DNA of 64,000 nt. It comes from a virus (taxonomy: Duplodnaviria > Heunggongvirae > Uroviricota > Caudoviricetes). Positions 57,756 through 62,279 of this stretch are shown here, piece by piece. Every line of letters starts with the position of its first letter. Within the stretch, counting starts at the first letter, position 1. The notes below the pieces were generated by a model. The model did no database searches. It was not told the DNA's origin and worked only from the letters and a program-made list of their open reading frames with translations. The stretch lies in IMG/VR virus record IMGVR_UViG_2645727901_000008. One strand, 5' to 3'. The translations under genes were made by a program, and so were the position numbers.

Positions 57756-58952
57756 TTAAGAACCTTTCTTCACATACTCCATGAACATTTTTTCAGCTTG
57801 TGCAGGTGGTGTTCCTGCCATGACCAGCGCATCAATGAACGCCTGCTTCTTCAGTGCGAACTGATCGGCCAGGCGTTGCTGAAGCTCCTTGTTTTTCTGT
57901 TTCTCACGTTGCAACGCCGCTTCTTTTGCTGCCGCCCGTTTTTTCTGTGCGTCTGACAACTTTCTGGCCTTGGTCAGTTGGTCACGTAGCTTGTCAATCT
58001 TGCCGTTGTCCTTTGCCAGTTTTGTGCTTAAAGCGGCCTGGCGCTTCTGATAGAGCCTCCATTCGCGCTTGGCAGCGTCAACGTTTGTTTTACTGTTGCG
58101 ATTGCGATTAAACTCCCTCTCGTCTTCTTTTGAGAAGTGTTTGGTTGTACGGCGGCGATCGTCACCAAATGCAATTTGCGTTGCGGCCTTTTGTAACGCA
58201 CGAGCAATACTCATTTGCCAACTAGCGGACTGTAACCGCGTCATTGAGTGGATCACGTGTTTACAGGCGACGCCTTGTAGCTTAGGGTTACGAACTTTTG
58301 GATAGGCGTATTCTTTTGGCGGGGCCAGGGCAAAGTTACCCGCAGTAGCGATGTAACGATACCAGTATTGATGACGACCACAGTCACAATCGAAAGACAC
58401 CCGCCCGGCGCACAGTGATTTAGTGATTTTCAGAGCTGATTTATCGTCTTCTGCGATGTCATCGACCATCTGATCCCATTCTTCAAAGCGTATCCGGACG
58501 ATATGGTGCTGGTGGACGGATATATCCGATGCTTCTACGCGGATATGAATCACGTTGTGGCGAAGAGATACGGGTGTAGCTCTTTTGATACCAGATCCGT
58601 CATCCACGGCGTTATTTGCACGCTTAATATCGATTGCCTGGCTGGATGCCACCAGCTGGGCGTATGTGATGCCAGCCGTCTTGCTGTCATATTTTTCGCG
58701 TGTTTTACTCCGTAGCTTTTCGAAACCTTTCAGGTCGTCTCGCGTGAAGAACGTGCCGCCTTTTTTCTTCCCTAACTTGAGAATATCTTCGGCGGATTTG
58801 TTCCTCAGTCTACCTGGCGTCAGCGTCCGGTGAGCTTGTCGGCGCTTACGGGTTTGTTCTTTCCTGATAAGGTCGAATAAACGCGTGAAGTCCTTAGAGG
58901 ACAGGCCGTCAGTGATATAGCGCCCGTCCTGGTTTTTCAGGAAATCAGGCAT
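57756..58952 (-). CDS. Cys/His-motif protein with lysine-rich coiled-coil C-terminus
   Basis: 398 aa with FDCDCGRH…CKHVIH, a possible zinc-binding motif, and a K/A/Q-rich coiled coil; start overlaps the upstream gene by 8 nt. Confidence 0.5.
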   Translation of the reverse strand: MPDFLKNQDGRYITDGLSSKDFTRLFDLIRKEQTRKRRQAHRTLTPGRLRNKSAEDILKLGKKKGGTFFTRDDLKGFEKLRSKTREKYDSKTAGITYAQLVASSQAIDIKRANNAVDDGSGIKRATPVSLRHNVIHIRVEASDISVHQHHIVRIRFEEWDQMVDDIAEDDKSALKITKSLCAGRVSFDCDCGRHQYWYRYIATAGNFALAPPKEYAYPKVRNPKLQGVACKHVIHSMTRLQSASWQMSIARALQKAATQIAFGDDRRRTTKHFSKEDEREFNRNRNSKTNVDAAKREWRLYQKRQAALSTKLAKDNGKIDKLRDQLTKARKLSDAQKKRAAAKEAALQREKQKNKELQQRLADQFALKKQAFIDALVMAGTPPAQAEKMFMEYVKKGS

Positions 58953-59274
58953 TTTCTATCTCCGGTTCCGCGCTCGCGTAATCACGGATCTTGTTCCTCA
59001 GCCATGCCACATCAGGAAGAGTTAACGTGGTCCCGGCGGGCATTTCTTCCATTTCTGACTCATGGCCCACCAGCACCCGGAATACCCAGCGCAAATCTGC
59101 ATTGCCATACGCCCTGTAGGCTGCAAGGTCTGAACGATATACTTCATCAATCTTTATCGTGTACTGGAAATTATCAGAGTGATACTCCGATACCCGCTTA
59201 ATCATTTCCTGGTGAAACAGCGCACGAAAAATATCGTCTTCAATGTACCTATCGTCGAGTCTGCTATAGCCCAT
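58945..59274 (-). CDS. hypothetical protein
   Basis: 109-aa ORF translationally coupled to the 398-aa gene. Confidence 0.45.
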   Translation of the reverse strand: MGYSRLDDRYIEDDIFRALFHQEMIKRVSEYHSDNFQYTIKIDEVYRSDLAAYRAYGNADLRWVFRVLVGHESEMEEMPAGTTLTLPDVAWLRNKIRDYASAEPEIENA

Positions 59275-59467
59275 AACAAAGCCTCTCAGTCATAACATGG
59301 GGGAAACTGTATGCAGGGTGTGAAATGCGAGAAACAGACAGGCCACCAGTTCAGGGGGATGTGGTTCATAAATCCCCTCACTGGTGACAAGTGACTTTCA
59401 TTAATCTTTATGCGGGGGCCAGCTTCATTTGCTGGCATTAGATTAAAAATTAAACGGAGTGAATGAC

Positions 59468-59601
59468 ATGGATGTTATTCTAGAATTGTTAAAGCTTATT
59501 GATCTGTTTATGAACGCCTCATTGACCACTCAAATACTGGCGTCAATATTTTTGTTACTCTTCTACCTGGTATTGAGGGAGTTAACAAAGCTACTAATGT
59601 G
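59468..59601 (+). CDS. unannotated small hydrophobic peptide (44 aa)
   Basis: Below the ORF-track cutoff. ATG 59468 with SD ggag; encodes MDVILELLKLIDLFMNASLTTQILASIFLLLFYLVLRELTKLLM, one predicted TM helix; the stop abuts a convergent gene. Confidence 0.3.
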
Positions 59602-59602
59602 A

Positions 59603-60256
59603 TCAAAGTATCACGGTATCTTCATCAACTTCTTTCCCAGCCAGTGACTTTGGCTGGGAGGTGCCTGCTTTAACTTTTTCATGCCCAATAATGGAAAGGA
59701 ACGAAGCGAGTATGCCTGTTTTTTGCTCTTTCTCGACTGTACCGGTCATCTGCTCTACATAATCTGCACTGGCAACGTTGTGGTATACGGTCGCGTAGCA
59801 ACACAGGATCATCAGAATATGCTCCGGCCTGATATCCTGCCAGTTCACCCTGTAGACTTCTTCTCCGTTACCGTTGTATTCGGTATCAACGATAGAGTCG
59901 GGGATTTCGAAAGCACCTTTGTTATTTTGCGGCAGGGATAATAGTTTCTGGAGTTTTAACTCTCTGTATCTTTCCATCCCGACGATGATTGCTGCTCTTC
60001 CATCGGCATGACGGGTCTTGAGAGTCACCTGACTTGCTCCGGTGCCAGCGGAGATCGTTGGCGTAATTTCGTCTACCAGTACCTTAAATTTGCTTTTCCG
60101 CAGGGCTGCTATAGCTGGAGGAATTTTTTGCTTTTGCTCCAATGCTGACGCGGGAAGGGGTTTTACTTCGTTAATAATGAGAGCACCGTCTTTCAGTATT
60201 GCAGTGAGCATTTGAGGCTTGCTGGTGGTCAGGCTGAATATTGCGATCTTTTCCAT
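59603..60256 (-). CDS. hypothetical protein
   Basis: About 218 aa from ATG 60256 (MEKIAIF…) with strong SD ggaggaagg; a 15-mer late-type motif lies 145 bp upstream. Confidence 0.5.
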   Translation of the reverse strand: MEKIAIFSLTTSKPQMLTAILKDGALIINEVKPLPASALEQKQKIPPAIAALRKSKFKVLVDEITPTISAGTGASQVTLKTRHADGRAAIIVGMERYRELKLQKLLSLPQNNKGAFEIPDSIVDTEYNGNGEEVYRVNWQDIRPEHILMILCCYATVYHNVASADYVEQMTGTVEKEQKTGILASFLSIIGHEKVKAGTSQPKSLAGKEVDEDTVIL

Positions 60257-60400
60257 TGTCCTTCCTCCACGGATGACGGATACAAAAAAAGGCCGCACAT
60301 GGCGGCCTGCTTTGGCGTTATGACTCCCTACCGCGCTTCGGCTGAAAGTTAATCGTCAAAAGAACCTTCAACGGGAGCCGTTAGCGCGATGGATTATGTG

Positions 60401-60415
60401 CAGTTTGTGATTTCC
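60401..60415 (-). promoter_or_regulatory. late-promoter-like motif (cagtttgtgatttcc)
   Basis: Identical 15-mer to 28729..28743; CATAAT follows 4 bp downstream in sense orientation. Confidence 0.45.
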
Positions 60416-61649: not shown

Positions 61650-62279
61650 TCATTTTTGTCGGATCTTTTCCAGCATATTTAATTCATTATCACTTTCTGC
61701 TGCTGAGACGGTTGGCCTCACATTTCCGAAATATTTCCTGTGAGACTCATGACTTATGTATTCACCGACAGTTTCATTCTTGAATATACGAATTTGACAT
61801 ATGCGAGATCCAACAATAAGTTCTACAGGGCTATTCCCATGATTAAATAACTCTAAAGATATACAGCCTCTGTACCCTGGTTGTATCATGGTATTTAATG
61901 AAAGACCAAGCCTTGTATAGCTGCTTCTGGACAATACATCAGCGTAGCAATCTGGTGGCAAACAAACATATTCTAATGTTGTTGCCAGTACCACTTGATT
62001 CGGGTAAACAATGAATCTATCCCCAAGATCTCTCCTTGTTTCCTGGAAAAATGTTCTGATTGGTTGATGAGTATCATTGTTTTTTGATGGAATTAACTCT
62101 ATTGACGGCTTCCTTGTCATAATAGACACTAAAAAATCGTAACCAAGTCTAAGGTCTATGGTGAAGTTCCCAATTTGGTTTTTATTTAGAAGAGGTTCAA
62201 TGAACAACGACTCAGGTTCTTCTGATTCATAATATTGCAGCAATTCAGCTTTGCTTAGGAGATTCATTGTGCACTCCAT
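61650..62279 (-). CDS. dCTP deaminase family (Dcd / dUTPase-fold) protein
   Basis: IDLRLGYDF…LSRSSYTRLGLSL…IQPGYRGCISLELFNHGNSPVELIVGSRICQIRIF is collinear with E. coli Dcd motifs as recalled, including the S/R and E catalytic positions. Last gene of a coupled operon; AT-rich. Confidence 0.75.
   Translation of the reverse strand: MECTMNLLSKAELLQYYESEEPESLFIEPLLNKNQIGNFTIDLRLGYDFLVSIMTRKPSIELIPSKNNDTHQPIRTFFQETRRDLGDRFIVYPNQVVLATTLEYVCLPPDCYADVLSRSSYTRLGLSLNTMIQPGYRGCISLELFNHGNSPVELIVGSRICQIRIFKNETVGEYISHESHRKYFGNVRPTVSAAESDNELNMLEKIRQK

Follow-up and report, generated by a model that had tools for sequence, protein, structure and literature searches.

The window, meaning the whole 64,000-nucleotide stretch of viral DNA analysed here, comes from a D6-like phage-plasmid of the P1 family; its segment 58900–60400 shares 98.7% identity with Escherichia phage D6 and 80–99% with 119 plasmids from Escherichia, Salmonella, and Shigella. 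Within this segment, a 328-bp gap separates two minus-strand late genes, mat and gene 26 (the latter followed by gene 25), and the gap holds a plus-strand open reading frame (ORF) of 44 codons, MDVILELLKLIDLFMNASLTTQILASIFLLLFYLVLRELTKLLM, which runs from an ATG at 59468 to a TGA at 59600–59602 (Table 1). A sequence-only reading of this DNA had described the ORF as it is, except that its end, placed at 59601, is off by one and belongs at 59602. The Shine–Dalgarno sequence that it reported was recovered as the GGAG 8 nt 5' of the ATG; in the haplotype alignment, this element is not conserved in two other allele classes and is lost in the L027–L030 allele. The abutment of the ORF on the convergent gene was also confirmed, as the stop codons of the ORF and mat directly touch. 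Because they touch and no terminator lies between them, the two transcripts must overlap, as had been supposed, and no intrinsic terminator is predicted downstream of mat. The ORF cannot generally be called unannotated, since it corresponds to orf77 of phage D6 (YP_009914754, “hypothetical protein”; 95.5% identity). The family is PHROG 38362 (phrog_38362 match with E = 3e-28 over residues 1–44) and is named in a few NCBI records. PGAP usually does not call this 44-codon ORF, and in the PLSDB gene tables, which are incomplete, the plasmids shown have no listed gene at its position. A neighbouring D6 annotation, the 27-aa orf76 (window 59311–59394, plus strand), overlaps a 52-bp stretch where other relatives carry higBA instead; no family matches this annotation, which probably does not represent a gene.

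Table 1. Features of the mat–26 region of the window, late-promoter sites, and contents of the corresponding gap in related contigs
Feature	Position	Strand	Remarks
Gene 26, baseplate wedge	58945..59274	-	Left neighbour of the gap
Whole cassette: promoter, leader, and ORF	59387..59602	+	About 215 bp, AT-rich
P1-type Lpa-dependent late promoter motif (predicted)	59387..59407	+	Match to annotated P1 late promoters
Predicted 5' leader	59414..59467	+	Stem-loop 59418-59436 (GCCAGC / TTCATTT / GCTGGC); GGAG 59456-59459
44-aa ORF (D6 orf77 homologue), stop included	59468..59602	+	Coding evidence, hydropathy, AF2
mat, maturation control protein	59603..60256	-	Convergent with the ORF; stop 59603-59605
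D6-type late promoter of mat, AAATCACAAACT-GCA-CATAAT	60393..60413	-	26.3 bits
D6-type sites	28741(-), 16764(-), 60413(-), 36117(-), 10737(+), 19270(-), 23036(-), 10713(-), 56172(-), 44751(-)		
D6-type site in P1	L041:27072-27092 = NC_005856 31571-31591	-	
mat–26 gap, L030/L018/L024	Cargo spans L030:3927-4561, L018:3332-3966, L024:3928-4562		higBA-like pair (114 + 97 aa) left of the cassette
mat–26 gap, L026	Cargo span L026:3760-4406		RelE/ParE-like pair with HTH protein; no cassette
mat–26 gap, L025	Cargo span L025:3835-5108		IS element directly 5' of the ATG of the small ORF
mat–26 gap, L032 (Mat 78% identical)			Only 62 bp with canonical terminator; no cassette

An open frame of 44 codons is unremarkable by itself in DNA of 36% GC, and the status of the ORF as a gene rests on its evolutionary signal, not on the length of the frame. 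Relatives were collected through Mat, giving 32 related IMG/VR contigs plus D6; a scan of the genome contigs with Mat identified only 3 loci. The frame is intact in all 31 carriers, and the region is missing altogether in two relatives. Parsimony reconstruction over the 13 ORF haplotypes yields 24 synonymous and 14 non-synonymous events and not a single stop, the substitutions being distributed 7:5:26 over the three codon positions. At a neutral synonymous fraction of 0.23–0.31, this synonymous excess has a binomial p of 1e-7 to 4e-5, while the other two frames of the same alignment, with 3–4 synonymous events and several stops, show no such excess. Pairwise Nei–Gojobori omega (dN/dS) values of the ORF range from 0.04 to 0.23. 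A second allele (L018 and L024; proteins P0031–P0037) differs from the window at 40 of the first 81 nt (codons 1–27; 49% divergence), and it nevertheless contains no indel and keeps the same frame, the 44-codon length counted from the corresponding ATG, and the amphipathic/helix pattern. Members of the family are found on roughly 250 contigs in the protein databases, of which only a handful carry frameshifted or truncated versions, the rare disrupted copies being interrupted by a frameshift or an IS insertion. At least about 100 sequenced plasmids from Escherichia, Salmonella, and Shigella carry the gene. Judged by these substitution patterns, the 44-codon ORF is a real, conserved, and selected coding sequence for a small membrane peptide. 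The second allele can also be read as 63 aa from an in-frame upstream ATG (L018:3059–3250 and L024:3655–3846, both minus strand), and this ATG falls on the start site predicted for the late promoter, possibly giving a leaderless mRNA; one of its variants, P0036, has lost the internal ATG through M20K.

The product is, according to hydropathy and structure prediction, a helix–kink–helix inner-membrane peptide of 44 aa with a GRAVY of 1.43. Hydropathy places an amphipathic stretch at residues 1–16 and a membrane-spanning core at residues 18–36, and the AlphaFold2 model (pLDDT 94.7) comprises a helix over residues 2–16, a break at A17–S18, and a second helix over residues 19–43. The peptide had been pictured as hydrophobic and single-helical with a basic patch at its end. 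Its hydrophobic membrane character stands, while two helices are predicted in place of one, and the end carries only R37 and K41 beside E38, for a net charge of +1. No match for the peptide was found in Pfam (E ≤ 1), NCBIfam (E ≤ 10), or PADLOC, and two word-indexed searches and one exhaustive profile search of 1.84e9 representatives recovered nothing beyond its own family. As regards a possible holin or pinholin role, the peptide is small, with one transmembrane (TM) core and an amphipathic helix, and its late-type promoter is of the foreign type; the gene sits between mat and 26, away from the D6 lysis genes, and has no Pfam match. Homology to P1 PmgL, which occupies the equivalent position divergent from gene 26, was considered and rejected, as PmgL is hydrophilic and Cys-rich.

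The region upstream of the ORF contains a motif composed of AC, a -22 box AAGTGACTT (59389–59397), a TCAT spacer, and a -10 element TAATCT (59402–59407). The motif lies 60 nt before the ATG, leaving a leader whose length is within the P1 range, and the promoter predicts a transcription start at ~59414. The reference set for this motif was the GenBank annotation NC_005856, which defines 11 P1 late promoters with -22 regions; in each, a 9-bp “-22 region” is separated by four bases from a -10 element, and AC mostly stands in front. The 9-bp repeat of the P1 late promoters is the binding site of Lpa (PMC10695390). LPmat reads AAGTGACTT-cagt-CAGAAT, LP23 reads AAGTGACTT-tcaa-TAAAAT (full site ACAAGTGACTTTCAATAAAAT), and LPpac reads ATGTGACTT-tcgt-TACCCT (full site ACATGTGACTTTCGTTACCCT). 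The window box fits the P1-type 9-bp consensus AAGTNACTT and is identical to the boxes of LPmat and LP23, and it is followed by a 4-nt spacer and a TAnnnT -10 element, with no -35-like hexamer. The palindromic 9-bp -22 box, the spacer, TAnnnT, and AC are thereby shared with the Lpa-dependent late promoters of P1 (LPmat, LP23, LPpac, LPs, LPlyz, and others), so that the predicted element is a full match to a P1-type late promoter. Its -10 element, TAATCT, is weak-looking; that of P1 LPlyz is TATCCT.

With a position weight matrix (PWM) built from ten P1 late promoters, the window site scores 19.3–19.4 bits, whereas the runner-up reaches 12.4 bits when the window is scanned and 13.7 bits when the complete D6 genome is; it is the sole P1-type site in the whole 91-kb D6 genome. 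A score of 19.4 bits was reached anywhere in 7 of 300 shuffled D6 genomes, a genome-wide chance of about 2%, and the weight of the predicted promoter comes from its position and conservation, not from this chance level alone. Positions 59388–59413 are invariant in 22 haplotypes, compared with 45 variable positions out of 186 in the leader and ORF (Fisher p = 0.0017). Every ORF-bearing relative has the motif, even those with the diverged allele, in which the sequence departs immediately past the -10 element; L026 and L032 lack it. Minor variants occur in L023, which differs at the first flanking base, and in L024, whose -10 element is TAAACT; the exact motif is found in IMG/VR on D6-like contigs only. 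The stem of the predicted leader is kept in all window-type haplotypes but that of L030, and the diverged L018/L024 allele has a different stem (CCAGCTC/GAGCTGG) in the same place. Neither a consensus scan nor a PWM scan detected a sigma-70 promoter 5' of the ORF. Within the region, the strongest sigma-70-like candidate, TTGACC-17-AATATT at 59522–59550 on the plus strand, lies inside the ORF and points into mat antisense; it is not conserved in the diverged allele. A de novo search for 9-bp inverted repeats recovered terminators only. From its late-promoter motif, which the sequence-only reading had not noted, the gene is predicted to be activator-dependent rather than antisense-controlled.

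The late operons of the D6 lineage are preceded by a different element. A D6-type late box, AAATCACAnACT-N3-(T/C)AnnnT, scoring 17.6–28.2 bits, lies 40–160 nt upstream of 10–11 late operons, namely 5' of R, prt, mat, pmgB, the lysozyme gene, ddrB, lydA, darB, gene 7, and gene 23 (major capsid), and some of these sites were not used in defining the motif. The D6-type motif is apparently the consensus for late promoters in the D6 lineage and is distinct from the AAGTGACTT box of P1. The ORF promoter agrees with the D6-type box at 4 of 11 positions, and the best plus-strand score in the gap is 2.9 bits. The one Lpa homologue of D6 shares 31% identity with P1 Lpa, and tblastn found neither a second Lpa gene nor a P1-type lpa in D6. 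Compared with the late promoters of P1, the window site thus sits in a genome that uses another late box, lacks a P1-type lpa, and has an Lpa of only 31% identity. Given this identity and the different late boxes, the 44-aa gene therefore lies behind the sole P1-type late promoter of a D6-type genome. The two boxes have a loose AA(G/A)T(C/G)AC core in common, offset by 2 bp; the P1-type box may be read by D6 Lpa as well, or it may be left over from an earlier recombination event with a P1-like phage. Two further elements were noted on the minus strand. A weak D6-type promoter-like site (59306–59326, 8.7 bits) precedes gene 26, which may have a weak promoter of its own. Between the mat promoter and the mat start codon, in the mat leader, lies a strong terminator-like hairpin (60290–60308, AGGCCGC...GCGGCCT followed by T7), with a second site at 60369–60383, and the hairpin suggests possible attenuation or antitermination control of mat.

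A mirror image of this arrangement is found in P1. The sole D6-type motif in the P1 genome, AAATCACAAAGT-ACA-TACCGT, lies 39 nt upstream of lydC, and its score was reached by 0 of 300 shuffles. The same 21-mer occurs on 28 P1-like IMG/VR contigs, in 23 of which it is followed by a LydC-like ORF. LydC has been described as holin-like and lethal when cloned; its gene is monocistronic and not driven by a P1 late promoter, and it is only accessory for the lysis of P1 itself, which has several redundant small holin-like proteins (PMC9025707). Among the holin-like proteins LydC, LydA, and LydD of P1, LydC resembles orf77 in being a small membrane protein whose monocistronic gene does not stand behind the late-promoter type of the resident phage. 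The two proteins differ in other respects: LydC has 93 aa and two predicted TM helices, whereas orf77 has 44 aa, one TM core, and an amphipathic helix; there is no sequence similarity between them; and orf77 is not located beside an endolysin gene.

The promoter, leader, and ORF form a cassette that is inserted exactly at the mat stop codon within the mat–26 gap. Its left breakpoint, ~59387, is marked by L030, in which a higBA-like pair lies to its left, and its right edge is the mat stop; the GC content is 0.36, against 0.47–0.53 in the flanks. In related contigs, the same gap holds toxin–antitoxin pairs or an IS element (Table 1), and the comparison indicates that the mat–26 gap is a cargo hot spot of D6-like phage-plasmids, in which the cassette travels with its own predicted promoter. 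No terminator belonging to the cassette was found. The cassette resembles phage morons in its insertion polymorphism between mat and 26, low GC content, opposite orientation, and alternation with other cargo (toxin–antitoxin modules and IS), whereas it lacks a terminator and has a promoter that belongs to the late-activator class instead of being constitutive. The 9-mer AGTGACTTT occurs at both 59390 and 59643, and was considered as a target-site duplication; this was rejected, since the left copy represents the Lpa box and the right one falls within the conserved coding part of mat. The right copy, an exact repeat of the Lpa-box core at 59643–59651 on the plus strand, is about 40 nt past the stop of the small ORF, has no -10 element after it, and is situated in the loop of a 10-bp hairpin (~59633–59660) at the 3' end of mat.

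These features are tentatively interpreted, at somewhat less than an even chance of being right, as those of an activator-dependent membrane peptide that would be triggered by a P1-type Lpa and cause exclusion or premature lysis. The gene would be silent in the plasmid prophage because no sigma-70 promoter is present. In a cell that harbours the D6-like element, entry of a P1-like phage into late transcription would supply the P1-type Lpa that switches the gene on, and the peptide would then perturb or depolarise the inner membrane. Lysis by P1 relies on a SAR endolysin and holins, which fire upon depolarisation; depolarisation sets the SAR endolysin free, and a competing phage can be eliminated by premature lysis (PMC9025707). 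Premature lysis or another late block would be the expected result, by which the rival would be excluded. During the lytic cycle of the element itself, mat transcripts that continue beyond the mat stop would be antisense to the cassette and counteract its expression; the strength of this read-through is uncertain, given the mat leader hairpin and the possible promoter of gene 26. The wider proposal of a reciprocal “late-activator trap”, in which orf77 behind a P1-type box in D6-like elements and lydC behind a D6-type box in P1-like elements would each respond to the activator of the rival with premature lysis, is put forward as a rather doubtful extension.

The main rival of this interpretation is that orf77 is an ordinary late gene of D6, in which D6 Lpa, alone or with a host factor, activates the P1-type box to produce an accessory lysis-timing, holin/antiholin-like, or morphogenesis protein. 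The late-promoter architecture, the late-gene neighbours, the redundancy of small holin-like proteins in P1 (PMC9025707), and the short core common to both boxes, which makes cross-recognition conceivable, are all consistent with it. The other 10–11 late promoters use a different, well-conserved 12-mer, with which the site shares only 4 of 11 positions, and the Lpa proteins are only 31% identical. The position antisense downstream of mat, with no terminator, is awkward for co-expression with mat, and orf77 is dispensable because it is absent from some relatives (L026 and L032). An ordinary late gene is hence regarded as somewhat unlikely, and the remaining alternatives are weaker. A moron expressed in lysogeny from a weak or non-sigma-70 promoter, encoding an inner-membrane factor for, e.g., superinfection exclusion or a membrane-protein regulator, would account for the presence or absence of the cassette between the same two conserved late genes (it is missing from L032 and L026), its deviant, low GC content, its orientation opposite to the flanking late genes, and the toxin–antitoxin cargo at the same site in sister plasmids. 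This explanation is improbable, as two scans found no sigma-70-like promoter upstream, the only conserved upstream element is the late-promoter motif, and the own terminator expected beside the own promoter was not found.

The resemblance to type I toxins and small membrane regulators noted in the sequence-only reading holds as far as a small hydrophobic membrane peptide is concerned, and fails on antisense sRNA signals and toxin-family matches, neither of which was found. Like Hok, TisB, ZorO, DinQ, Ldr, and Fst, the peptide is small, has a hydrophobic helix, and could plausibly act on membranes, and its N-terminal ELLKLIDLF resembles the leucine-rich amphipathic helices of TisB and ZorO; it differs from these toxins in the C-terminal location of its TM segment and in its control, which apparently lies with a transcription activator. 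In a type I system, an antisense RNA would restrain the membrane toxin; this could be a dedicated sRNA or a 3' extension of mat mRNA. [quoted passage not shown] The search for an antisense RNA found no minus-strand promoter above background and no terminator, leaving the dedicated sRNA without a promoter/terminator pair, and no Rfam antitoxin family at E ≤ 5 was accepted, the only matches being noise at E ≥ 0.6; an sRNA lacking consensus signals might still be present. A TAGAAT at 59477–59482 on the minus strand was rejected as an antisense promoter, as it lacks a -35 element and is destroyed in the D6 allele; a long hairpin that would sequester the Shine–Dalgarno sequence is predicted for the window allele and is not reproduced in D6 or other alleles. 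No toxin family in Pfam or NCBIfam matches, and the predicted activator-dependent promoter removes the need for an antitoxin, rendering a type I toxin–antitoxin pair very improbable. The idea that there is no gene at all, the open frame being incidental and the conservation due to promoter, processing, or structural signals in the mat–26 spacer, could draw on the abundance of 44-codon open frames in AT-rich DNA, the usual omission of the ORF by PGAP, and the non-conserved Shine–Dalgarno sequence; it is barely credible in view of the strong frame-specific synonymous excess with 0 stops, the negative controls in the other frames, and the persistence of frame and length in the second allele despite 49% nucleotide divergence.

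Triggering of the peptide by a P1-type Lpa would have parallels in the transactivation between P2 Ogr and P4 delta and in the engineered phage-triggered suicide cassettes of lactococci, in which the promoter of one element likewise answers the late activator of another. Those systems represent satellite parasitism or are man-made, whereas here a membrane peptide is proposed in a full-size competitor phage-plasmid. Late-promoter-driven small membrane proteins and cross-activation between phages are known themes; what is new is the predicted foreign-type promoter arrangement, and this foreign-type late promoter, together with the reciprocal arrangement in P1, is the most interesting feature of the gene. 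A prophage may sense a competitor via the late activator of the competitor itself and answer with a membrane peptide. If true, this would represent a new sensing principle for phage–phage exclusion and abortive infection and, in its reciprocal form, a transcription-factor-sensing inter-phage defence, and it would explain why lydC is lethal when cloned yet nearly dispensable for P1 lysis. The analysis also makes a well-supported small-protein gene of a neglected “hypothetical” ORF that annotation pipelines usually pass over and, as a by-product, defines a candidate late-promoter consensus of the D6 lineage. Beyond mat, a variable region of the window replaces the simB-like gene of D6 and encodes a dCTP deaminase-like protein of 209 aa (61650–62279, minus strand; TIGR02274, E = 1e-32), which has no PADLOC match and resembles nucleotide-depletion defence genes.
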